DNA of 64,000 nt from Candidatus Babelota bacterium (GCA_049325595.1 JBMOLF010000015.1:96001-160000); one strand, 5' to 3'; counted from the first letter of the stretch, positions 6,876-40,565 are shown. The notes: generated by a model from the sequence alone, not told the origin. Numbers and translations: made by a program.

Positions 6876-8036
6876 ATGGCACAATTATTTTATTCATTTA
6901 TTCTTATTTTTTTATGCATTACTTGTCCAATTAATGCTATGTTTACAGTAGCACGACGAATAGTGCCTTTGATAGCTATTAAATCTGCCCAATCATTACA
7001 GAAAAATTCAATTTTTATTCAAAAAAATACCAAAAATTACAAGCCATTATTTAAAACTGTTCAAGCTGAACAAAATATACCAATGACACAAAATCGCTTG
7101 TACAGTTGGTTTAGTTGGACAAAAACTGATGATCGAAGCAAAAAGGCTGAAGAAAATATTAAAAACCTATTAAAAAATTCACGCAATACATTGCTCAAAA
7201 CCAGTGATACTACTTTTGATGAATTCTTAAAAAACGTTGCTACTATTAATTATCAAAGTGATAAATTGGCTTCTCAAGAACTTGTATTTGAAATTATCAA
7301 AGCTACTGGCTACCAATCTAATAGCATTATAGCGCCCTGGTTTTATAACGATAACGATATTGCGCAAGAATTAATAATGGGTGTTGATCGCCAAAAAAGA
7401 TTAGCACAAGTTTTGCTTAATAAAAAAATTAAGCTTGATAGCATCGTAGTAAATAATCAATCATTGTTATTATACGCAATTAGCCAGCTTAATATTGGCT
7501 TTGTTCAGATGATCATGCAAACAGAGTTTAAACACTCAATTGATGTAGCCACTGCAATTTATTATTTAGCGTCTGAATTTGCCAAATTAGAAGATAAAAA
7601 TAATTGGCTGTGTTCTTATAATACCGCTGGCCTCATAACGCGTGATTATCATCGAGCGCGCGCTTATATTATAAAAATGATGGCGCACATTTTACAGCCA
7701 GAGGAATTACCAAAATTTAATTACAACGGGCCTACTTCTGATAACGTTAGAAAAAGTCAAAATAACCAAAAAAATAATACCGAACAAAAAACAGAAAAAA
7801 AGAGATCAACACCATATAGCATAGATGAGTTTTATCAGTTCGCCTTACAGCATGAACGAGTACCAGAATTAATTTTAGGCATAGAAGCATTAGCAAATCA
7901 GCAAGAAATTAAAAATGCCTATAAAGCATTGATAAGCAAATACCATCCCGATAAATACTTGGATGATGAAAGTAGGCGAAAAGCGACAATAATTACTCAA
8001 ATTATTATCAATGCATACAAACATAAATGTTCATAA
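6876..8036 (+). CDS. Secreted protein with C-terminal J (DnaJ) domain
   Basis: GGAGG RBS; ILGI...EIKNAYKALISKYHPDK J-domain with HPD; signal peptide. Confidence 0.8.
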   Translation: MAQLFYSFILIFLCITCPINAMFTVARRIVPLIAIKSAQSLQKNSIFIQKNTKNYKPLFKTVQAEQNIPMTQNRLYSWFSWTKTDDRSKKAEENIKNLLKNSRNTLLKTSDTTFDEFLKNVATINYQSDKLASQELVFEIIKATGYQSNSIIAPWFYNDNDIAQELIMGVDRQKRLAQVLLNKKIKLDSIVVNNQSLLLYAISQLNIGFVQMIMQTEFKHSIDVATAIYYLASEFAKLEDKNNWLCSYNTAGLITRDYHRARAYIIKMMAHILQPEELPKFNYNGPTSDNVRKSQNNQKNNTEQKTEKKRSTPYSIDEFYQFALQHERVPELILGIEALANQQEIKNAYKALISKYHPDKYLDDESRRKATIITQIIINAYKHKCS

Positions 8037-29337: not shown

Positions 29338-29988
29338 CTATTTTAAAATATGAGTATAATTAGGAATTTTTACTACATAACCAACATATGGGCCTTCTAA
29401 ATCAGTTGGTTGATCACCCACACATGCAACAATATCATATCCTTGGGATACTAACTGTGCTCGCTGGGATGATTTGTATTGAATGGCTTTTAAATGCTTT
29501 TCATTATGTGATTTGCAAATTAAACGATCAAATTTAACATATCCATGCAATGCAAGATTTTGTATGGTTGCATCATATAATTCTTCGCTTCTGCTTGTTA
29601 GAAAGAATATATGATAGTTATTGTTAGCACAGTAATCATACAATTGCTTTACTGCTACAATAGTTGGCGCATTTGCGCGAGTAACAAATTCATTAAATAA
29701 ACGATCTCCGCAATAATCACAAAAATCTAACGTTTTTAAATGGTAAAAAGCTAATAATATCGTATCGTCAACATCAAAAATAATAGACTTTGAATCGCTG
29801 AAATTATCTTTGTTAGATTCTAAATAATCAATAGCTTGATCTATAATTTGTTTGCATTCTTGTTCAAAGGCGCCAGATTCATAATGTTCAATTACCTGGT
29901 CCTTTGCTATGCGTAGATTAAGGGGTTGTGCAATGGTGAAGGGTGTAAAGAAAACAGAATAGATTAAATAAAACGCTAATTTTTTCAT
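29338..29988 (-). CDS. HAD-superfamily class B-like acid phosphatase, secreted
   Basis: IIFDVDDT, LTSR, YKS, VGDQPTDL, KIPN motifs; signal peptide. Confidence 0.88.
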   Translation of the reverse strand: MKKLAFYLIYSVFFTPFTIAQPLNLRIAKDQVIEHYESGAFEQECKQIIDQAIDYLESNKDNFSDSKSIIFDVDDTILLAFYHLKTLDFCDYCGDRLFNEFVTRANAPTIVAVKQLYDYCANNNYHIFFLTSRSEELYDATIQNLALHGYVKFDRLICKSHNEKHLKAIQYKSSQRAQLVSQGYDIVACVGDQPTDLEGPYVGYVVKIPNYTHILK

Positions 29989-30115
29989 AATAAGCCCTCA
30001 TTTTTTAATGCATTGGGTAAATAAGAACCTATGATAAATATAATAACATTCTTAAGCAAAAAAAATAAGGGAACTGGTCAAAAGCTCCCTATGATCGAAT
30101 TGATAATTGGACTAT

Positions 30116-31012
30116 CTAACTATTAGATGCAAATTGTTTGTAGTATGACAATTTTGGTAAAATACTTTTAATTTCTTTGATCCGCTTGAAGGGTGCAAGA
30201 ATTTCTTTTTTATTGTCAAAAAACTTCTGCTTTTTTTCATTTATATGATATAAGCATATGCGATTGTGAGCTTTTAAATGTTGTTCGATTTGTTCTATTT
30301 CTTTTACCGATAAATAGCCATATTTGGTGATATCTTCTTTTCTTTTTTGCTCTCTTTTTTTTGTGTCGCTAGCGCATACAAAGCAATTGGTGGCATATAG
30401 TCCTTCAGTGTCAGCGCGGTGCTCACAGTAATAACTATATTTTGCTGTATAATAGACCGATGATAATGCTATGATTATTGTCGCTGCATCAATTACATCA
30501 TGTTTGTTACAAAACGTTTTTGCGATTTGATTTCCTGCGGTAGCTATCAATGCCCATGTACCTAAAGCAACTACCTTACTCGGTCCATCAGCGTATTTGA
30601 TATGAACTGCTTCATGATGCAATACATGATTTCTTGAACCATAAGATTGATTATTGTATGAATTCTCATTAACGTAAATACTACCGTTTGTAGCATGAAC
30701 TAAACCAGCAAATTCTACATTATTAGCTCTTTTAATTGGTACCGTTAATTTAGGATGAGTTCCTAAATCAATTTGAGCTTGTTTGCCTAAATGTTGATAT
30801 TCTGCCGATGCTGTTCCATGATTTATTCTGAGAATCTTACCTAATAACCAATCAAGGGGGCGAGCTAAATATTTTACTACTTGTGCTGCATACGAATTAG
30901 TAAAATAAGCTTGAAATCGATCAAAGCGATTTGGTTTATACAAATCACTTGCTGTTGCATTGGCCATGCCCAAAGCAAGAACAATTCCTAATAATGCTGA
31001 TTTAAACTGCAT
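30116..31012 (-). CDS. Secreted HEXXH zinc metalloprotease-like protein
   Basis: HHEAVHIKY, EHRAD, CxxC...GYL...CxxH; signal peptide. Confidence 0.75.
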   Translation of the reverse strand: MQFKSALLGIVLALGMANATASDLYKPNRFDRFQAYFTNSYAAQVVKYLARPLDWLLGKILRINHGTASAEYQHLGKQAQIDLGTHPKLTVPIKRANNVEFAGLVHATNGSIYVNENSYNNQSYGSRNHVLHHEAVHIKYADGPSKVVALGTWALIATAGNQIAKTFCNKHDVIDAATIIIALSSVYYTAKYSYYCEHRADTEGLYATNCFVCASDTKKREQKRKEDITKYGYLSVKEIEQIEQHLKAHNRICLYHINEKKQKFFDNKKEILAPFKRIKEIKSILPKLSYYKQFASNS

Positions 31013-31031
31013 ATAACCTCCACAGGCAGTA

Positions 31032-32063
31032 TTAATCTAATTTGGGGCACACATTCTTGATAATATTTTCAAGTGACTTACTAATAACTTCGGCGCTTTG
31101 TTTGGTGTATCCACCTGATAATGTCATGACTATGGGAATGTTATTTTTAATCGCAGATTCTATTACCAATTGATCTCGTATTATAACACCTTGCGCGGTT
31201 ATGCTCATGCCGCCCAGAGGATCGCCAATTAAAATATCAGTTCCTGCATTGTATATGATAAGTTGTGGTTTGTGATTAGCAATTGCTTGGTCAACAGCAG
31301 TTTTTACTTTTTCTAAATATTCTGCATCTTCTGTTTTCCATTCGAGCGGTATACGGTATTGTACATCAAATTGAGTAAGATAATCATGGAATGTTGGATA
31401 ATTATATTTGCCATACGAGTCAATCAACGCTACACGAGGATCGTTTCTTAATAGGGTTGAATTACCATTTCCTTGGTGAGCATCAAGGTCAATTATGACT
31501 ACTTTAAGCTCAGGATGATTTTTCCAAAGTTTGTTAATAGCTAAAGGTATGTCAGCAAAGAAGCAAAATCCTTCGCCTTGATTTGCTTTAGCGTGGTGAT
31601 ATCCGCCAGAAAGGTTAAATGCTAACCCATGTTGCATTGCTAACTCAGCAGCTAAAATAGTTCCTGCTGTTGCATACTTCATAGGTTCTAATATTTTTTT
31701 TCGTAATAAAAAATTTGGCATAATTCGCAATAAGGGTACACCTGCTACTTGTGCAATCACATGAGAGTTTTTTAAGCTTTCTAAATAGGGTGATTTATGT
31801 ATGGCAAGTAATTGCTCGTCCGTAATAATAGTTGGTGTATGAATAGCGCTCTTAGAAATAAGATTATTTTTGGTTAAATAATTGAATGTTTTGCTGTATT
31901 TGTGAGTGTCAAAATAGTGCAAAATTTTTTCAAGCCCAAAAAATGAAATATCATAATTTTTATGATATATAATTTGTGGATTATATGAAAATGGTGACGA
32001 GTAGATATTTATTGCGCAGAAACTTGTTAGCAAAGCTAATAGTACGTATCTTTTTGTTATCAT
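31032..32063 (-). CDS. Histone deacetylase family protein (HDAC11/class IV-like) with signal peptide
   Basis: GGYHHA, GFCFFAD, DLDAHQGNG, YNAGTD..GDPLG, SGGY. Confidence 0.92.
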   Translation of the reverse strand: MITKRYVLLALLTSFCAINIYSSPFSYNPQIIYHKNYDISFFGLEKILHYFDTHKYSKTFNYLTKNNLISKSAIHTPTIITDEQLLAIHKSPYLESLKNSHVIAQVAGVPLLRIMPNFLLRKKILEPMKYATAGTILAAELAMQHGLAFNLSGGYHHAKANQGEGFCFFADIPLAINKLWKNHPELKVVIIDLDAHQGNGNSTLLRNDPRVALIDSYGKYNYPTFHDYLTQFDVQYRIPLEWKTEDAEYLEKVKTAVDQAIANHKPQLIIYNAGTDILIGDPLGGMSITAQGVIIRDQLVIESAIKNNIPIVMTLSGGYTKQSAEVISKSLENIIKNVCPKLD

Positions 32064-32086
32064 AATTTTTTCCTTATCAATAACTC

Positions 32087-32638
32087 TTATCCAAAGCGAT
32101 ATTCCACAATAGTACCGTTTACTTGCTCACGTATGTTAAATATTTGATTGGTTTTTTTATCTTTACGGCATAATTGGTAATCGAACATATGGTTAGGTCT
32201 TTGCGTAATCAAAGCTTTATAATAAGAGTGTTTATACTCAAATCTTGAAGAAAGATTGGTTGTAGTTTCCCCATTTAGCAATTGATCTATTGTATCGTGA
32301 ATTTGTTTTATAACTTCTTTAGTTTCTGCCAAAACCTCATTATTATAAGCACTATCTTCAATGCTTGGTGCTTTAATAGTATTGTTAGATGTTGCGGATG
32401 GAGTAGATGTTTTTTTGATGTATTTAATAAGACTTATCGCTGCAATTGTACCAATAGCGCCGCCTATTACAAGCTTGGGATTATTGGTAATTTTATTTAA
32501 AAGATAATCGCTCGATTGGCCAGCAATTTTTGATAGGGTGCTTAATGCCGTAGAAGCTTTATCCTGCCAACCGGCATGTGCGGACTGATTTGCAAGAAAT
32601 AATCCGGCCATAAGAACAGATATAGTAAAAAATTTCAT
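32087..32638 (-). CDS. Secreted/membrane hypothetical protein
   Basis: GGAGG RBS, signal peptide ending AHA, one internal TM. Confidence 0.7.
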   Translation of the reverse strand: MKFFTISVLMAGLFLANQSAHAGWQDKASTALSTLSKIAGQSSDYLLNKITNNPKLVIGGAIGTIAAISLIKYIKKTSTPSATSNNTIKAPSIEDSAYNNEVLAETKEVIKQIHDTIDQLLNGETTTNLSSRFEYKHSYYKALITQRPNHMFDYQLCRKDKKTNQIFNIREQVNGTIVEYRFG

Positions 32639-32903
32639 AAATAACCTCCAAAAATATATATCAATATAGACTACCAGTTTTGATATTTTTTTCAATTTGA
32701 ATATAATTGCGGGTGTTTAAGGCTAATTATTTATGCTAAAATAATCCAGTTTTAATATATATAACTATGGAGAAGCATGAGATACTTGTTTTTTGTTAAA
32801 AATGGTGCTTTAGGGTTATTGATACATTTTTTATAAAAAATTTAAGGTATTTTTCTAATTTATAAGAGAAGAGGAAGCAAATCCAACTTCCTCTTATGTA
32901 ATC

Positions 32904-32942
32904 TTAGCTAATGTCAGCATCGATTGGGTTGTCAGATTTTTT
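32904..32942 (-). repeat. Relic copy 3 of dnaK 3' end (KKSDN-PIDADIS*)
   Basis: ttagctaatgtcagcatcgattgggttgtcagatt vs dnaK 37309 ttagctaatgtctgcatcaattggaccattgtcagatt; followed by hairpin at ~32870-32895. Confidence 0.88.
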
Positions 32943-33708
32943 GCAAATGATGCATACAAAGACTATTTGTTTGCTTGAGCTTTTTTGCAATAGATTTTAA
33001 TTCAGAATGTGAAGCATAACCGTACTCACTATGGTCGGTTGAGGCAGTAACATATTCCTTAAGGCAGTGGTAGCATTGTGTCGCATGTGCACCTTCTATA
33101 TCAGCTCTATGTTCAGCATACCGGTGATATTTTTTCGACACAGCAATAGCTGTCAGTATTTCAGCGATGGAAGAAAAAAATTTTGTGCGTTTGTTTTGCG
33201 CAAATATTTTTGAAATAGTAAATCTGCTTGCATAATAACCGGAGAACCAACAGAGCAGCATGCTTATTGAATCATCATATTTATAATGAATTGCTTCATG
33301 ATGCATGATAAATCTTTTGAACCCATAAAAGGGTGAGTATTGTAATGCTGTTTCATTTACGAAAATACCCTCTGAGTTAGTTAAAGCAACAGTCTCATAA
33401 TTAAAAAATTTCTTTCTAAAATTTGATGTATAAGTAGTTTTTACCGGTGGTAAAGTAAGTAGTGGTCCATTAAGAGATTGTTTAACTTCATTAGCAAGTT
33501 GCTGGTATTCTTCTGACGCAATCGAATCACTTAATCCCAGAGGTTTTTTTATAATTGTATGAACAACATGCATGAATTTTTTTATCGGAATTAATATTTT
33601 GGAATGTGCTAAATAAGTTTGGCATTTGTCAAATTGATTTGGCTCGTTACTAAAACAAACGTTAAAGAAAAATAATAAAGTGATTAATGAGAATTTTTTT
33701 ATTTGCAT
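32932..33708 (-). CDS. Secreted HEXXH metalloprotease-like protein, paralogue of 30116
   Basis: HHEAIHYKY, EHRAD, CYHC...GYA...CMHH; stop codon lies inside dnaK relic 3. Confidence 0.75.
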   Translation of the reverse strand: MQIKKFSLITLLFFFNVCFSNEPNQFDKCQTYLAHSKILIPIKKFMHVVHTIIKKPLGLSDSIASEEYQQLANEVKQSLNGPLLTLPPVKTTYTSNFRKKFFNYETVALTNSEGIFVNETALQYSPFYGFKRFIMHHEAIHYKYDDSISMLLCWFSGYYASRFTISKIFAQNKRTKFFSSIAEILTAIAVSKKYHRYAEHRADIEGAHATQCYHCLKEYVTASTDHSEYGYASHSELKSIAKKLKQTNSLCMHHLQKI

Positions 33709-33828
33709 GAATCTCCTTTTTTTGGCAAATCTTAGTGTACAAAAATCAAAACTTCAACAGACTAAAATAATTGAATAAACAGAGAAAACCTTCTTATCAA
33801 TTTTATCAGATCAACAGCTATTCTTAAA

Positions 33829-34545
33829 TTAAAAATAATGCATAGTCGATTTTAATTCTTTAATATAAGACAATTGTCGCTGATAGGTATCTAAAAATTG
33901 ATCTTCATTGTGTGGATTAAGGCCAATAAGAAGATTGCCTAATCCATATATAAATATAATCAAGGAGACAGCAGATCCCCATCCAAGTACGAGTTCTAAA
34001 TTATTAAGATTTATTTTTGCTTGAAAAAGAGTATTTAGTTTATGAGAATTCAAGAAACGTCGGCCAGAAACAAATAAAGCTCCGCAGAATGTCTCAACCC
34101 GCATCCCTTGTTGCTGAAATTCTTTTTTAATAAAATTAAATTTTGATTTACTTTGCGTATACCATTTCTTGTAACTAATATAAAGCAAATAATTTAGCCC
34201 AGAACTGATGGCTATTGATATACATCCGTTGCGAATTGATTTATAATCGTACCTTTTGTTTTTAAATGATTCAATTCTTTTGATCCTCATTTCAAGTTTA
34301 TTTTCTAAGTCTAGCAATAATCCAAATTTATCTAATTCAAGAGATAATGAATCTAATGCGCTCTTAATCATTTCTTGAAATGTTTGATCATTAATATTTT
34401 TACTTTTGTTGAGAAATGCATTTGTGTCTTCTCTTAACAAAGTATAAGACAAAGGATGATTGTAAAAAAATGAATAGTTGTTGGAAGTTGTAGTAACCAA
34501 TATTAAAAATATAATTTTTAAAATTAAGCTCTTAACTAAATACAT
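33829..34545 (-). CDS. Hypothetical membrane protein
   Basis: N-terminal hydrophobic segment and two TM-like stretches. Confidence 0.65.
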   Translation of the reverse strand: MYLVKSLILKIIFLILVTTTSNNYSFFYNHPLSYTLLREDTNAFLNKSKNINDQTFQEMIKSALDSLSLELDKFGLLLDLENKLEMRIKRIESFKNKRYDYKSIRNGCISIAISSGLNYLLYISYKKWYTQSKSKFNFIKKEFQQQGMRVETFCGALFVSGRRFLNSHKLNTLFQAKINLNNLELVLGWGSAVSLIIFIYGLGNLLIGLNPHNEDQFLDTYQRQLSYIKELKSTMHYF

Positions 34546-34717
34546 TGATTTCTCATAAAGGTTTTATTTAACACTCATTTTTATAATATAACAGTTTTGG
34601 AAAATACTTTTATATTCGTTATTTAAGTCTAGAGTTTTATTATTTTTTATTAGTACAATTGATTTCGTGTAAGGTCAATTATTAAGAGTGCAAATAATAA
34701 GATGTTTTTAAAGAAAA

Positions 34718-34742
34718 AAGGGAACCTTTTAGGGTTCCCTTA
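34718..34742 (-). terminator. Terminator following dnaK relic 2
   Basis: aagggaacc...ggttccctt, homologous to hairpin at 35670-35694. Confidence 0.75.
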
Positions 34743-34763
34743 AGTTTTATGGCTAACCAGATC

Positions 34764-34826
34764 TTAGCTAATGTCAGCATCTATTGGGCCATTGTCAGAC
34801 TTTTTGTCGTCTGATTCTGGTTGTTG
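34764..34826 (-). repeat. Relic copy 2 of dnaK 3' end
   Basis: Encodes [20 protein letters not shown] vs Dna[21 protein letters not shown]; mostly third-position differences. Confidence 0.93.
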
Positions 34827-35546
34827 TCTTATTTCATAAGAATGATCATTTTTTTTGAAAATTACAAAATCTGCATATTGTTTAGTTGGAGCTATTGTTT
34901 TATGATAGTCTTCCATATCCCATTTTATATCTTCATCAAATTTTTCACGTGTTCGTGCTTTTTCTGGTGTTCTCAGTTCTCTTTTCCAATTCCATTCAAT
35001 AATATCTGTGTCATCAGCATCAAGAAAAACTCTTATACTGCTATATTTTAAAAAGTCATAACTTGTAGAGTCACACAAACAATAAATGCCTTCAAATAAG
35101 ATGAGATTAACATTATGAAAACAAGCAACTTCTGTATCTTTAGTGCTCACTTTTTCTGCGTGATCCCAGATTGGTTTTTCGATGTGTTCTTCTCCTGAAA
35201 TAATTTTCGAGAGAGTATCATGTAGTTTTATGTGATCGAAATTTTTATGGATTAATGGATTTTCTACCGGGGTAGGTTGTAGAAAGTCATCAGCCTTTAA
35301 AATTTTTACTTTAACCCCTTGCTGGCGCAATAATTTTGAAAGTTTTCTGGTGAAATAACTTTTGCCTACGGCAGAACAACCGGCAATGGCAATGATAGGT
35401 TTTGAAGAGGTAGGATTATCTGCGTGTTGTTGTGCTAATTTTTTTGCTTGTTCTAATAAAGGAGTGCATATAATTTCAAAATTATCTTCGCTTGCTTTAA
35501 TACTACTAATTAGGCTTAAAATCAAAATAATAGTAATTTTGTACAT
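34764..35546 (-). CDS. Uridine/pantothenate kinase-like P-loop protein, secreted, fused to DnaK C-terminal tail
   Basis: IAIAGCSAVGKS, ADDF, LFEGIY, IAPTKQYAD; ends [18 protein letters not shown]. Confidence 0.82.
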   Translation of the reverse strand: MYKITIILILSLISSIKASEDNFEIICTPLLEQAKKLAQQHADNPTSSKPIIAIAGCSAVGKSYFTRKLSKLLRQQGVKVKILKADDFLQPTPVENPLIHKNFDHIKLHDTLSKIISGEEHIEKPIWDHAEKVSTKDTEVACFHNVNLILFEGIYCLCDSTSYDFLKYSSIRVFLDADDTDIIEWNWKRELRTPEKARTREKFDEDIKWDMEDYHKTIAPTKQYADFVIFKKNDHSYEIRQQPESDDKKSDNGPIDADIS

Positions 35547-35669
35547 ACTGACCTTTTTTTGTTAATAAAATTTTTTAAATCACAAAAGTTTAATACAAAA
35601 TTATTATCAGAGCAATGGCCTAACGCTATAAGCTATACAAAATACCTAATTGCAATGTTTAAAGAAAAA

Positions 35670-35694
35670 AAGGGAACCTTTTGAGGGCTCCCTT
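35670..35694 (-). terminator. Terminator following dnaK relic 1
   Basis: aagggaacc...ggctccctt with T-run on minus strand. Confidence 0.7.
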
Positions 35695-35718
35695 ATCGTA
35701 TAAGTGCTAATCTACTAT

Positions 35719-35825
35719 TTAGCTAATGTCTGCATCAATTGGACCATTGTCAGATTTAGTATCATCTAATTCTGGTTTTTGTTCTGCACCTTCAGCGCCG
35801 CCTTATTTGTATAACAATTCAGCTA
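35719..35825 (-). repeat. Relic copy 1 of dnaK 3' end (107 bp, non-coding)
   Basis: Aligns ungapped to 37309-37415 with 6 transitions, one giving CAA>TAA. Confidence 0.96.
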
Positions 35826-35959
35826 GTTTTGTATATTGTTGAATAAATATGCATTAGTAATCGATGCCTGAGTTTAACGCATTTCTCTATTGAAGCATCA
35901 AATTGACAAAATCTTAAAATAATATATTCTAATAGAAACAATAAAGCGGGGGAAGAATT

Positions 35960-37177
35960 ATGAATAAAAAATTACTTTATGTTTTTTTAGTTGCATTTCT
36001 TTTTGATCATGGTTCGATTAGTTCGGCTGAAAAAAATTCCAAATTAATCTTTAATACGCCACTTAGTAATAGATTAAAAAAAGATTTTTTTCTTCAAGCT
36101 ACGCAAAAAAAGTCATGGGAAAAATCTTGCGAGCACATTTACAATAAATATTCCAATAACAAAAAAGACATAAGTCCTTTGGGTGTAGGTTTAGATGTAA
36201 CAAATCAAATCTCTTTCAATAGTCAACACGCAAACAAATCTCAAACTGATGCTTATTTATCTGTGATTAGTTTTAATAAGAGTCTATTTTGGCCAATAAT
36301 AGAGAGATGCAACATGCAATTGTTAATTAAAAAAATGATTGAACAAGAACGCATTATGGCAAAAACGCATTATGTTTTTTATCATGGTCAGAATAATACC
36401 TTTATCTTGTTGCAAGATATATTAAAAGAATTTGCTCAATTGAATTCTCAACATACCACCAATGAGAATTTTGAATTTTTACGATCACCATTTTCATCTC
36501 TAAGCGGCACTACAGTTCAAGATTTTCTAAAGGAAACGTTGGAAAAGTATCCATGCAGTAATTACGACAAAAAACCTGATATTAGCTGTCATCTTATTTC
36601 AGCTAATTTAAGTATTTTTGGTAATGAAACGCGCAACGGTGAAAATTCACTTTTTTATTTTTTGACTAACTACAGTTCATCACTAAATGATTTAAAAAAA
36701 ATTATTACTGAACTATTTATCAAGCTTAATATTGATCAAAATCATGTAGACAAGGTAATCAATACATACAAGCCCTTATTCAACAAATCAAATTATGGCC
36801 TTATGCAGCAGATTTTCATTCCAAAAAACCTTGTTGATTCTTGTGTTTATTTATCAGAGCCCTTTGGTATTCCTTACAAAGAGCAAATTGATAAAAATAC
36901 TTTTGATACTGTAAAGCGTATGCATACCAAAATTTCTTCTATTTTGGAGTTATACCAAAAAGAACCTGAAGCACTCAACAAGTCAACTTGGTACAAGTGG
37001 TTCACGCTATCAGAGAGTCATTTGATGAAAATGCAAGCCCGAATTTTAATGACTAAGGATATAATGCTAAATCCCAACAGTGGTGTAAAAATTTATCGAC
37101 ACCATAAATTTGATGTTGAGGTATACAATCAGTGTAAAGCAGAGTTGAGAAAAATTATTAATTTAATAAGATCATAA
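35960..37177 (+). CDS. Secreted hypothetical protein (YVFYHG motif)
   Basis: 405-aa ORF, signal peptide, TTGACA...TATTCT promoter-like sequence and GGGGG RBS upstream. Confidence 0.75.
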   Translation: MNKKLLYVFLVAFLFDHGSISSAEKNSKLIFNTPLSNRLKKDFFLQATQKKSWEKSCEHIYNKYSNNKKDISPLGVGLDVTNQISFNSQHANKSQTDAYLSVISFNKSLFWPIIERCNMQLLIKKMIEQERIMAKTHYVFYHGQNNTFILLQDILKEFAQLNSQHTTNENFEFLRSPFSSLSGTTVQDFLKETLEKYPCSNYDKKPDISCHLISANLSIFGNETRNGENSLFYFLTNYSSSLNDLKKIITELFIKLNIDQNHVDKVINTYKPLFNKSNYGLMQQIFIPKNLVDSCVYLSEPFGIPYKEQIDKNTFDTVKRMHTKISSILELYQKEPEALNKSTWYKWFTLSESHLMKMQARILMTKDIMLNPNSGVKIYRHHKFDVEVYNQCKAELRKIINLIRS

Positions 37178-37253
37178 ACACGATAATAACAATTAAGAAA
37201 AAAAAGCTTGCTTAGTACAAGTAAAAAAAATTTTTCCTTGTAATTTAGAAACA

Positions 37254-37281
37254 AGAGAGGGGCGTAAAGCGCCCCTCTCTT
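37254..37281 (-). terminator. dnaK terminator
   Basis: agagaggggcg-taaag-cgcccctctct. Confidence 0.8.
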
Positions 37282-37308
37282 TATATTTACTACTGGCCTA
37301 AAACAACA

Positions 37309-39192
37309 TTAGCTAATGTCTGCATCAATTGGACCATTGTCAGATTTGGTATCATCTGATTCTGGTTTTTGTTCTGCGCCTTCAGCGCCACCTTGTTTGT
37401 ACAACAATTCAGCTACTTTGTGAGACGCTTTGAGCAATTCATCGTGAGCTTTTTGCAATTCTTCTGCATTATGCTCATGTTCTTTGAGTGCAGATTTAGC
37501 TTTATCGATTGCTTGTTGCAGATCTTGTGCATCTTGAGCAGGGATTTTTTCTTTATTCTCTGCTAAGGTTTTTTCGATTTGCAAGATGGTGCCATCAAGT
37601 TGATTTCTTTTTTCAACTGTTTCACGGGCTTTTTTGTCTTCAGCTTCGTGTGCTTTTGCATCTTGTACCATGCGATCGATTTCTTCTTTGCTTAAGCCGC
37701 TGCTGCTGGTAATAGTGATTTTTTGCTCTTTACCAGAAGCTTTGTCTTTTGCAGAAACATGTACAATACCGTTAGCATCGATGTCAAACGACACTTCAAC
37801 TTGTGGAACGCCACGAGGAGCGGCAGGAATACCTTCTAATCTGAATTGGCCAAGCATTTTGTTATCTTTGGCAAATTCACGCTCACCTTGGAATACACGA
37901 ATATCTACGGCTGTTTGATTATCTTCAGCAGTTGAGAATACTTGTGATTTCTTGGTTGGGATTGTGGTATTACGTTCAATTAACTTGGTCATCACGCCGC
38001 CAAGGGTTTCAATACCAAGTGACAACGGAGTAACGTCAAGCAAGAGTACATCCGTTACTTCACCTGCTAATACACCACCTTGAATTGCAGCGCCAACGGC
38101 TACTACTTCATCAGGGTTTACTGATTTGTTAGGTTCTTTACCAAAGAACTCTTTAACTAATTGCTGTACTTTTGGAATACGGGTTGAACCACCAACTAAG
38201 ATAACTTCGTCAATTTGGCTTGGGCTTAATTGTGCATCAGCAAGTGCGCGTTTGCATGGTTCGAGTAAGCGTTTGAAAATGTCTGAGCAAAGAGACTCAA
38301 GTTTTGCACGAGATAATTTGATATTCAAGTGCTTAGGACCGGTTGCATCAGCAGTGATGTAAGGCAAATTGATATCGGTTTCGTGTAAGGTTGAAAGCTC
38401 TTTTTTTGCTTTCTCAGCCGCTTCTTTTAAGCGCTGTAACGCCATGCTATCTTTAGTAAGATCGATGCCTTGCTCTTTTTTAAATTCATCAGCAATGTAA
38501 TCGATTAACACATGGTCAACGTCGTCACCACCAAGATGGGTGTCGCCATTGGTTGAGCGCACTTCGATAACGCCATCATTAATTTCTAGGACTGAAATAT
38601 CAAATGTACCACCACCAAAGTCAAACACGGCAATAGTACCACTTTTTTTCTTATCAAAGCCATAGGCTAATGCTGCTGCAGTAGGCTCGTTGATGATACG
38701 TTTTACTTCTAAGCCTGCAATGCGACCTGCGTCTTTGGTTGCTTGACGTTGTGAGTCGTTAAAATAAGCAGGTACCGTAATTACCGCTTCGGTAACTTTT
38801 TCGCCTAAAAACTCTTCAGCGGTTTGCTTGAGTTCGCTCAAAATAGCCGCAGATATTTCTTGTGGGGTATATTCTTTGCCTTGTGCGACGATAGCAATGT
38901 CGCCATTGCTGCGCTTTACTATTTTGTAAGGCATTTTTTTGATTTCATTGGTCATTTCATCATATTGATGGCCAATGAAACGCTTAACTGAATAAATGGT
39001 GTTTTCAGGGTTGGTAACTGCTTGACGTTTTGCTAAGGTACCTACCAAACGTTTGCCATCTTTGGTAAATGCAACGATAGAAGGGGTTGTATTTGAACCA
39101 TCTTTATTAGGAATAACTTTCGGGGTACCACCTTCCATGAAGGCTACTACCGAGTTGGTTGTTCCTAAATCTATGCCAATTATTTTTGCCAT
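37309..39192 (-). CDS. dnaK: Molecular chaperone DnaK
   Basis: [42 protein letters not shown], substrate-binding domain. Confidence 0.99.
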
Positions 39193-39334: not shown

Positions 39335-39554
39335 CTTTTATATAAATAAAAATTTAACTTTTAACCTGAATAAATTTATGTAAATTTTTTCTATGTTCGA
39401 TAATGTTTCACACAGGCATAAATAATTATAAGCGTCGCATAACGAAAGTATTCTGTAACAATATTCGATCGACGCACTTGATTGACCTGTTTTTTTTCTG
39501 ATTTTGTTTGCGCGATTTGAGCCCTTATTTATAAGGTTTTTAGGAGTAATTGAT

Positions 39555-40440
39555 TCGCGCGGCGCGCGACAGGGCACTCCGTCTGCACCCCTCAGCCCAT
39601 TTTGTGGGTAGGGAAGGGGGGCTTACGGGGATTTGACTCCGTTAAAAACAGGAAGCAGGAGGAAGAAGAGGAAAGCGAGGGGGAAAGGATTAAAAATAGG
39701 GGAAAGAAAGGATGGGGGAGAAAATAAGGGAGGAATAAATAAAAGAGATAGGTTAGGTGTAGAGGTATAAGTAATAAGAATAATAGACACCTGTATATAA
39801 GCACATGGCATGACTTAGCTAAAAGATAAATAAATATGATGTATGATGTAGGAATTAAAACTATATAGCATTAAAACAAAGTAAAAACTTACTTATATAA
39901 AAAGTATACAAGAGAATAAGATATGAGAGATAAGAGAAAGAGAATATGCATGATATATAGACTTAGAATATATAGGGTGAAGATAAATAGAAATCTAAAG
40001 ATTAAGAAATAAGAGCAAAGTCAAAAACTAAGACTAAGAATACTCGCTAAAGACATAACTAGTACTAAGATTAAACAAAGAAGAAGAGTAATAAACAATA
40101 AGCAAAACTAACCGATAAGAAATAAACAATAATAAAGCAAACTAATAAGATAACCAAGAAGAACAAGAAGCTCTATAAATTTATGGAGCAAAAGAAGAAC
40201 TTAAGCAAGAAGGCAAATACCAATAAGAAATCTACTGATTATTATTAGAAGAGTATAACTAGCTAATACTAAAAAAAGACGTAGTTAGAAAAGAAGAAGG
40301 GTGATAAGAATAAGAAGAAGAAGAAAAGGAATATATCTTATTAAAATACCGTTAAGAGGAAGATCAAAAACTCCACATCGCATGAAAAGAACAGTAAGAC
40401 AATATCTTCACACGAACCAATCAAACGTTGCGCAATAATT
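39555..40440 (+). other. Non-coding tract: GC hairpins, G-quadruplex motif and purine-rich strand (candidate origin/control region)
   Basis: GGG-TA-GGG-AA-GGGGGG-CTTAC-GGGG at 39606-39630; only 5 pyrimidines in 39661-39720; no credible ORF. Confidence 0.55.
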
Positions 40441-40565
40441 TGAGCCAAAATAACCAATAGATACGCTATTTTTTCTCATTTAATAGTTTTATTTGTTAAA
40501 AAAATAAGTAGTCCAATATATTTTTTTTTACATTATATTTTTAGATGAAAATCATACTTATCATA

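Follow-up and report, generated by a model that had tools for sequence, protein, structure and literature searches.

Relics of the dnaK gene end form a ladder between cargo genes in a Dependentiae genome and suggest gene capture without a dedicated recombinase

Results

The end of dnaK is repeated three times downstream of the gene

We analysed a window of 64,000 nucleotides (contig C15:96001-160000) from an assembly of 1,286,077 bases, here called G000 (24 contigs, 34.7% G+C), in which the end of the essential chaperone gene dnaK recurs as three relics behind the gene itself, with cargo genes lying between the copies. Coordinates given without a contig label are positions in this window. Judged by its relation to G001, a sister species of the same genus with a complete genome ('Candidatus Dependentiae bacterium Noda2021'; DnaK 97% identical in amino acids), the source organism is a member of the Dependentiae (Babeliales). 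Dependentiae are small-genome bacteria that inhabit amoebae and other protists. The interval from dnaK to ychF measures 13.6 kb in G000 compared with 4.7 kb in G001, with synteny between the two genomes on both sides of it; within the interval they share just M48-like homologues and two weakly similar open reading frames (ORFs) near ychF. The parts of the array, in downstream order from dnaK, are the following.

37309-39192, minus strand: dnaK, the anchor gene; 627 aa, Pfam HSP70 with E 1.5e-266
37309-37419, minus strand: the present dnaK tail, reference copy of the repeat; 111 nt, the last 36 codons and the stop
37253-37281: the present dnaK terminator, between the convergent dnaK and ORF405; a 13-bp G+C-rich hairpin, -24.5 kcal/mol, z -5.0
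35960-37177, plus strand: ORF405, cassette 1; hydrophobic N-terminus, without a Pfam family
35719-35829, minus strand: relic 1; 111 nt, 94% identical to the dnaK tail, outside any ORF
35670-35694, minus strand: hairpin behind relic 1, type A, from folding and alignment
34764-35546, minus strand: ORF260, cassette 2; signal-peptide-like N-terminus and a P-loop domain of the PRK/uridine-kinase family
34764-34827, minus strand: relic 2; 64 nt, 86% identical to the dnaK tail
34718-34741, minus strand: hairpin behind relic 2, type A', a diverged type A allele that resembles the sequence following dnaK in the sequencing run X4 (see below)
33829-34545, minus strand: ORF238, cassette 3, cargo a; an orphan with hydrophobic segments, without a Pfam family
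32932-33708, minus strand: ORF258, cassette 3, cargo b; a weakly M48-like HExxH protein of secreted type, whose stop lies inside relic 3, one frame off
32904-32943, minus strand: relic 3; ~40 nt, 85-89% identical to the dnaK tail, one codon deleted
32869-32895, minus strand: hairpin behind relic 3, a third terminator type; 10-bp stem, weak T-run

All three relics lie downstream of dnaK in direct orientation, and every copy of the repeat ends in TAA with a hairpin behind it. A BLAST search of the whole genome with the dnaK tail returned the relics at E values of 2e-43, 2e-15 and 2e-5, and no further copy in the assembly scored better than E 0.5. A preliminary description of this DNA had reported the three direct repeats, each with its stop codon and hairpin, and had proposed this very search; its account stands, with copies of 111, 64 and ~40 nt that shorten with distance from dnaK and occur nowhere else in the 1.29 Mb genome. 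The DnaK C-terminus that the repeat encodes bears a tail motif, GPID-x-[DE], which is conserved across the order (the tails of 25 relatives were compared), and all copies have in common the last 36-40 nt and the stop codon.

The relics differ from the present tail in distinct ways. Relic 1 shows 6 differences over 107 nt, all of them transitions, and by one transition a CAA codon has become an in-frame TAA. By manual count, relic 2 departs from the tail at 9 bases over 20 codons, 6 of the changes being synonymous and 3 not; its differences are thus mostly synonymous, as had been noted before. Relics 2 and 3 share allele-specific bases as well as the 3 bases after the stop (GAT), while relic 1 has the G001 state at all three synonymous sites that separate it from the present dnaK tail. 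Few as these sites are, this agreement would fit a present tail allele that was imported with cargo.

Two cargo genes run into relics, again as first described: the last 21 codons of ORF260 are relic 2, read in frame, and ORF258 stops inside relic 3 in another frame. Judged against homologues, the junction falls within the last 3-6 codons of the cargo gene in ORF260, in ORF258 and in a paralogous gene of another genome, G127, described below; the homologues of ORF260 in other genomes terminate 3-5 residues past the junction. Read by eye, the junctions are fuzzy, with matches of 2-8 nt (for example, 7 of the 8 bases before relic 1), and the joints are possibly secondary deletions. The structure given in the preliminary description, a shared 3' end with different 5' breakpoints, holds; the breakpoints need not be original joints. 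Junctions so close to the ends of cargo genes are more readily accounted for by later deletions that halt at the point where selection on the cargo sets in, and such deletions would also explain why the relics shorten with distance from dnaK.

The assembly was checked against X1, the sequencing run that is the probable source of G000, and against X2, which like X4 is a run of another study. The X1 unitigs showed 0 differences from the window stretch, and a single unitig spans 32765-35748, taking in relics 3 and 2 and reaching into relic 1. The 39-mer common to relic 1 and dnaK forms its own node in X1, with a depth of 63.9 against 33.3 and 28.4 on its flanks, and this double depth is expected for two copies per genome. 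The X1 unitig graph fits either the tandem form or a 1.59-kb circle, and an X2 contig of 247 nt, ~95% identical to the window, shows the tandem form, as it runs across the whole of relic 1 with its ORF405-side and terminator-side flanks. Given the X1 unitigs, the doubled 39-mer depth and the X2 contig, an assembly artefact can be ruled out. One X1 joint, from 34139 to 36607 (side 20), was disregarded as too short to trust.

The terminators of relics 1 and 2 are homologous (80% over 125 nt, tail included), and both the present dnaK terminator and that of relic 3 are unrelated to types A and A', which agrees with the earlier statement that relics 1 and 2 share a terminator unlike the current dnaK one. 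The spacer and left arm of type A are nearly identical to those of the G001 dnaK terminator. The folding z-scores of the four hairpins are -5.0, -1.9, -2.0 and -2.4, and three of the four are flagged as terminator-like, the T-run behind relic 3 being weak.

The units between the relics carry one or two unrelated genes

The cargo genes between the relics are mutually unrelated, have no close paralogue in the genome and have a G+C content of 28-31%, against 34.7% for the genome as a whole. Their N-termini are hydrophobic and, read by eye, look like signal peptides. The preliminary description had spoken of one or two secreted orphan genes between copies; the units do hold one or two genes each, but these are not all orphans, given the kinase-family domain of ORF260 and the weak M48 likeness of ORF258. 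Its scattered occurrence and its low G+C content suggest that the cargo is of horizontal origin.

ORF405 is a member of a multi-copy family present in 95 of the 261 Dependentiae genomes that made up our phylum survey, with a best identity of 38%; its best paralogue in G000 reaches 29%. Neither Pfam nor the protein atlas gave anything usable on its function, and the gene is found neither at the syntenic place in G001 nor in the X4 contig described below. Members of this family are ~400-aa proteins that often stand in tandem runs of 3-5 copies. The ORF260 family was found in 7 of the 261 genomes, G001 not being among them, with a best identity of 42%. As for donor context, ORF405-family and ORF260-family genes elsewhere do not lie beside dnaK, except in the genome G174, where an ORF405-family domain is found ~1 kb behind dnaK on the same strand and without a relic. 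ORF258 is a paralogue of ORF298 (30%), a gene further along the interval, and a homologue of the G001 gene behind dnaK (34%).

Relatives differ at the repeats

Behind the dnaK of G001 stand a type-A terminator and an M48-like gene and no relic, and relic 1 together with its terminator matches this G001 dnaK end at 93% over 165 nt. In X4, a contig of 1,633 nt joins position 35682 to position 37304 with 31 other letters between, and it lacks ORF405, relic 1 and the present dnaK terminator. The same contig carries ORF260 with its fused tail, ~95% identical, and parts from the window sequence precisely behind the stop codon of relic 2; the ORF260 cassette thereby sits in different flanks in X4 and in G000. 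A 14-nt motif from the X4 downstream sequence was found neither in G000 nor in 400 kb of G001. The X4 terminator is chimeric by eye: the 31 letters, with the spacer and left arm, resemble type A', and the sequence after the hairpin loop resembles type A. A chimeric terminator together with a different downstream flank is what excision and re-insertion through tail-terminator homology would predict. Cassette 1, with ORF405, is thus a strain-level insertion and the newest of the cassettes.

Comparison of the gene content downstream of dnaK, as the preliminary description had advised, shows units present in one relative and absent from another, with no relic in G001 and neither the ORF405 unit nor relic 1 in X4. 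An identical architecture fixed in all relatives, which it had named as grounds for abandoning its interpretation, is not what we find, since G001 and X4 differ precisely at the repeats. The relic alleles also resemble the dnaK ends of relatives: relic 1 resembles that of G001, the spacer and hairpin of relic 2 resemble X4 by eye, and the allele of relics 2 and 3 resembles the dnaK ends of X4 and of another Babeliales genome. A strict order of the ladder, with the newest unit always next to dnaK, does not fit these alleles: the sister-species allele stands at the proximal relic and the other allele at the distal ones. Taken with the ORF260 cassette in other flanks in X4, their distribution points instead to exchange among tail-terminator modules. 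Among metagenome contigs searched for closer strains, a first pattern gave 0 matches and a second gave two short contigs, both of which hold ordinary dnaK ends from less closely related Babeliales, without a ladder.

Relics of the dnaK tail recur across Dependentiae

A degenerate tail pattern, GPID[AVT][DE], was searched in the 261 genomes. It matched in 127 of them, 13 with two or more matches, and a reversed-pattern control matched 5 times. After these 13 had been fetched and aligned, true dnaK-tail relics were found in 6 of the 127 scorable genomes, spread over five families. The relics outside G000 are as follows.

G024: 48 nt, 4 kb downstream of dnaK, from which two HEAT-repeat genes separate it
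G089: 86 nt, 1.8 kb downstream of dnaK, 94% identical
G161: 81 nt behind one ATPase gene; a second contig holds two more relics, of 68 and 40 nt
G094: 179 nt, not on the dnaK contig, 92% identical; ~100 nt of it lie beyond the stop
G127: three paralogous genes, the third of which ends, in frame, with the last 10 codons

Across genomes the 5' ends of the repeat give lengths of ~30 to 179 nt, and the 3' end coincides with the stop codon in G000, G024, G089 and G127 and is found beyond the terminator in G094 and G161. In G094 there are two almost identical copies of tail and terminator, and in G127 all the differences from dnaK (4 of 4) are at third positions. Relics 1 and 3 of G000 and those of G024, G089, G161 and G094 are either not translated as part of a gene or out of frame. 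The cargo in the other arrays consists of AAA_14-DUF4143 ATPases and of proteins with HEAT, ANK or LRR repeats. Second matches in G047, G086, G104, G184, G186, G187 and G260, as well as a third in G127, were discarded as internal GPID motifs of unrelated proteins. As a control at another gene, a pattern for the tuf tail matched in 193 of the 261 genomes and in none of them twice.

Two of these genomes showed further details. The relics of G161 have as neighbours three different ATPases with AAA_14 and DUF4143 (L087:7486-8679, L088:3181-4368 and L088:4501-5688): one separates dnaK from its relic, one stands between the two relics that contig C29 carries, and one is found immediately upstream of these two. 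In G127 (L089:12423-14568), a pair of paralogous genes that converge with the dnaK array have the endings ...KDPIEE and ...GGPIEE, each followed by the stop, which recall the tail motif, possibly by chance.

When all of G000 was scanned for short direct repeats, just a single further gene-end relic came to light. At C11:48775-51298, a secreted HELGH protein of 333 aa has its last 17 codons (CKEYGLMGYQHGNLFS, then the stop) repeated 1.5 kb downstream with 86% identity, behind two small paralogous CHELGHA genes and just before ftsY. This relic may have arisen by duplication then deletion rather than by capture.

No recombinase gene accompanies the arrays

Families of integrases, resolvases and transposases were matched by 0 of the 11 window ORFs scanned, the four inter-relic cargo genes included, and by 0 of the 22 cargo and flanking ORFs of the five other arrays; the earlier remark that no integrase is in view in the window thus extends to all six arrays. 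G000 has three tyrosine recombinases, two of them strongly Xer-like and none within the window. The third lies 735 nt past the window end and has a counterpart at the syntenic place in G001, which is free of relics. In G024, G089, G161 and G094, the tyrosine recombinases are limited to two strong Xer-like ones each. Serine recombinases are found elsewhere in G000, G089 and G094, and no match to them in G024 or G161. The preliminary description had conceded that an att core with a cognate integrase elsewhere would undo its interpretation; a search for tyrosine and serine recombinase families in G000 and five other genomes found none linked to the arrays.

Several specific sources of the repeats were set aside. 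Two scans found no viral contig carrying the dnaK tail, which dismisses a phage attP source, and no large island bounded by two tail copies was found among the 261 genomes. The dif sites on which XerC and XerD act are 28 nt long, and a candidate dif-like site is conserved in both G000 (C15:175982) and G001 (472651); it bears no resemblance to the dnaK tail, and repeats made through Xer and dif (integrative mobile elements exploiting Xer, IMEX) were discounted. An integron was rejected as well, with no integrase adjacent and with hairpins that are dnaK terminator alleles plus two unrelated terminators, not attC sites. As for the machinery of the host, both recA and ComEC-family matches over the cut-off were present in 5 of the 5 relic-bearing genomes tested.

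Neighbouring features

The remainder of the variable interval lies beyond relic 3.

29338-32695, minus strand: rest of the dnaK-ychF interval, with ORF202, a gene for a secreted histone-deacetylase (HDAC)-domain protein, the M48-like ORF298 and an acid phosphatase; not bounded by relics

None of its genes has a syntenic counterpart in G001. ORF202 with its upstream region (window 31040-32797) is duplicated on contig C22:2850-3637 at 94% identity, and the C22 copy directly adjoins sequence that in the window follows the HDAC gene. This direct abutment means that the two copies differ by the insertion or the deletion of the HDAC gene (31032-32063), which is ~1 kb long, has an N-terminus resembling a signal peptide and shows no repeat at its edges.

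With regard to replication, the cumulative GC skew switches at C15 ~160-175 kb in G000 and at ~480-490 kb in G001, and by the same analysis the strand that carries dnaK is opposite to the leading one in both genomes. On this skew, dnaK appears to lie ~30-40 kb from the presumed terminus and to be transcribed head-on to replication in both. Xer-like genes and the dif-like site lie near the switch (G000 C15 ~160-176 kb, beyond the window end; G001 472-490 kb). The purine/pyrimidine asymmetry between strands is strong upstream of dnaK (window 39500-40500: GC skew 0.28, AT skew 0.34). Upstream of dnaK, recA is found at ~8-12 kb in G000, G024, G089, G094 and G161, a neighbourhood conserved across families of the order. 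Finally, in contig C19 of G000 (7,596 nt) the first 125 nt are repeated at 7349-7473 with 97% identity; this contig is possibly an element with terminal direct repeats or a near-circular contig, and no recombinase family matched on it.

Discussion

Our results suggest that the ladder behind dnaK is the scar of repeated, recombinase-independent and homology-driven gene capture at the dnaK tail and terminator, an explanation that we consider probable while leaving ample room for doubt. In this process, a small DNA molecule carrying a fragment of the dnaK end, with or without its terminator, beside one to three cargo genes would recombine with the chromosomal dnaK tail through the homologous recombination of the host (RecA). 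If the molecule were a circle, a Campbell-type single crossover would rebuild a complete dnaK, place the incoming terminator and the presumably foreign cargo behind it, and in the same event push the partial tail and the old terminator downstream. A cassette held between two tail copies could then be looped out, moved to the dnaK of another strain or reshuffled via the tail-terminator homology. Deletions would later trim the relics from their 5' side up to the end of the cargo gene, and this trimming would make older relics shorter and leave two cargo genes running into relics.

The form of the locus argues for such a crossover. Each insert is flanked by a direct duplication of the homologous segment, with intact dnaK on one side, and a complete gene, an insert and a partial direct copy of the gene end are exactly the product of a single crossover with a circle that carries a truncated locus. 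A precedent comes from an E. coli study that was looking for homology-facilitated illegitimate recombination (PMC3240628), where in a lacZ assay with a construct delivered by conjugation 56 of 60 integrants with one-sided homology carried a duplication, and where in 14 sequenced integrants 109-950 bp of the homologous locus had been duplicated by single crossover of a recircularised truncated molecule. As in our arrays (~40-180 nt), those duplications are direct, variable in length and made with no site-specific enzyme. That work, however, used a laboratory construct, whereas the relics described here are natural, serial, placed at one gene end and found in several lineages, and the circle is in our case inferred. 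Of the preliminary description, which combined homology-anchored accretion with an illegitimate distal join, the accretion at an essential gene with no integrase is upheld, the illegitimate join being inferred.

Several observations weigh against capture by homologous recombination. No circular form, donor genome or crossover has been seen, and the homology now available is short (~40-180 nt), a length at which RecA crossover is inefficient. The relics share the extreme 3' end, which is compatible with a fixed core for a site-specific enzyme acting in trans. The horizontal origin of the cargo was deduced from its distribution and base composition and not traced, and there are no close relatives of the cargo in the 261 genomes (at best 38% for ORF405 and 42% for ORF260). 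The X4 evidence consists of one contig of 1,633 nt with a depth of 7.6. Moreover, the divergence profile of dnaK against G001 has no sharp mosaic boundary, its 3' end being mildly better conserved, and the tuf control is imperfect, as essential genes usually stand behind tuf and 12 codons separate its motif from the stop.

A related route would be classic homology-facilitated illegitimate recombination (HFIR), in which linear DNA from a relative pairs with the body of dnaK and its far end joins illegitimately within the recipient tail, leaving the relic. Material for it exists, as dnaK DNA is 75-88% identical across genera, ComEC-like genes are present and relic alleles resemble the dnaK ends of relatives; such recombination has also been proposed for displacement arrays at V. 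cholerae loci for type VI secretion (T6SS) and at Rhs loci (PMC5361080). As the Introduction of PMC3240628 defines it, however, HFIR combines an insertion with a deletion in the recipient of about the length of the insert, and at dnaK we find the recipient segment duplicated, not deleted, which favours Campbell-type, RecA-dependent insertion. In addition, the illegitimate end would have to land again and again within the last 40-180 nt of dnaK, the junctions, which may be secondary deletions, show by eye no clear microhomology of the 3-10 bp expected at an illegitimate joint but only the fuzzy matches of 2-8 nt, and dnaK has no mosaic boundary with respect to G001. We therefore think HFIR unlikely.

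We give similarly little credence to decayed site-specific islands. These would have integrated serially at the dnaK 3' end with replacement tails, in the manner of cis-mobilizable elements (CIMEs), and they would later have lost their integrase and most of their genes, or have been mobilised by an integrase supplied in trans. The topology is the same as that of tandem islands at tRNA genes and gene 3' ends and of CIME accretion (PMC5704250): each unit has direct repeats of the target gene's 3' end on either side, a core could lie within the terminal 36-40 nt and stop that all copies share, and the same gene end was struck independently in five families, as a conserved att site would be. On the other side stand the lack of a recombinase gene in any of the six arrays and the four relic-bearing genomes that have only two Xer-like tyrosine recombinases, two of which also lack a serine recombinase. 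Nor did we find a large tail-bounded island among the 261 genomes or a tail-bearing viral contig in two scans. Furthermore, the boundaries of the repeat vary, on the 5' side from ~30 to 179 nt and on the 3' side between the stop and a point beyond the terminator, and the candidate dif is unlike the tail.

Fainter still is the prospect of a local accident of replication or repair, which strikes us as very unlikely. Forks stalling at the dnaK 3' end could set off template switching, or a staggered break there could take up stray DNA with duplication of the target; in a variant, tandem duplications would be followed by deletion of all but the tail. The position of dnaK, opposite the leading strand in G000 and G001 and near the GC-skew switch, would suit such events, as would the near-identical copies of tail and terminator in G094 and the C11 gene-end relic behind two paralogous genes, which looks like duplication then deletion. 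However, the cargo between the relics is mutually unrelated and without a close paralogue (the best being the 29% of ORF405), the different flanks of the ORF260 cassette in X4 and G000 require movement, and relic 1 keeps the G001 state at three synonymous sites that differ from the present tail.

Hardly credible, finally, is a tail retained as useful on the cargo, with the DnaK C-terminal peptide selected in fusions as a signal for sorting, secretion or partner binding: the in-frame tails of ORF260 and of the third G127 paralogue, their mostly synonymous changes (6 of 9 in relic 2, 4 of 4 at third positions in G127), the fused ORF260 tail kept in X4 and the conservation of the motif across the order would agree with it, but relics 1 and 3 and those of G024, G089, G161 and G094 are untranslated in a gene or out of frame, relic 1 has a stop codon and the similarity runs on into non-coding terminators, so that usefulness could account for the retention of some copies and not for the origin of the ladder.

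Among known systems, the closest are the arrays of T6SS orphan effector and immunity genes in V. cholerae and those of Rhs and contact-dependent inhibition (CDI) genes (PMC5361080). There, too, a conserved anchor receives new modules next to it and older 3' pieces are displaced downstream, no integrase is involved, homology-anchored recombination has been proposed and the modules differ between strains. In those arrays, however, a polymorphic toxin gene provides the anchor with its conserved 5' part, and toxin tips with immunity genes make up the cargo, whereas at dnaK the anchor is the end of an essential chaperone gene, the cargo consists of unrelated secreted or eukaryote-like proteins and the repeated unit is the anchor's own last 40-180 nt, with or without the terminator. 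Elements related to the integrative and conjugative elements (ICEs) ICESt1 and ICESt3, and CIMEs, at fda in Streptococcus thermophilus resemble the ladder in that direct repeats of the target end separate stacked units, and in CIME accretion integrase-less units persist between att sites (PMC5704250). Such arrays are made by an integrase and relatives carry intact elements; here we found none, the units measure 1-4 kb and their boundaries vary. Similarly, the dnaK-ychF interval, as a small region of gene turnover with no recognisable mobile-element genes, is like the hotspots free of mobile elements whose core-gene flanks recombine (PMC5635113). That study is statistical and presents no molecular scar, while here the relic ladder marks the joints. 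The dnaK array thus behaves like displacement arrays and element-free hotspots and lacks the cognate integrase by which island accretion is recognised. In the literature searched there was no description of dnaK as an insertion site or hotspot, nor of Dependentiae with dnaK in such a role; what is notable is the anchor gene, the stacking, the polymorphism between strains and the recurrence across a phylum of intracellular bacteria.

It is tempting to go further and to regard the dnaK tail-terminator module as a portable, integrase-free recombination site of Dependentiae, an 'integron without an integrase', an idea that we put forward tentatively and hold to be doubtful. In this scenario, RecA would loop a cassette out as a small circle, which could then enter the dnaK end of another strain or species living in the same amoeba. 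The gene end that is best conserved in the phylum would serve as a common docking point for effector-like genes in organisms nearly without mobile elements, the apparent head-on orientation of dnaK and its nearness to the terminus would supply the breaks that start the exchange, and some cargo proteins would have gained a DnaK C-terminal peptide in passing.

Obligate intracellular bacteria whose genomes are small and poor in mobile elements nevertheless gain and swap genes for interaction with their hosts by largely unknown routes, of which this locus offers a readable molecular record. It gives a concrete joint structure to the statistical observation that many hotspots without mobile elements adjoin recombining core genes. 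Moreover, repeats of the last codons of a core gene provide a simple screen for recently captured effector candidates in uncultured lineages. If the cassettes do move as circles made by RecA, Dependentiae would possess a new and very economical gene-cassette system.

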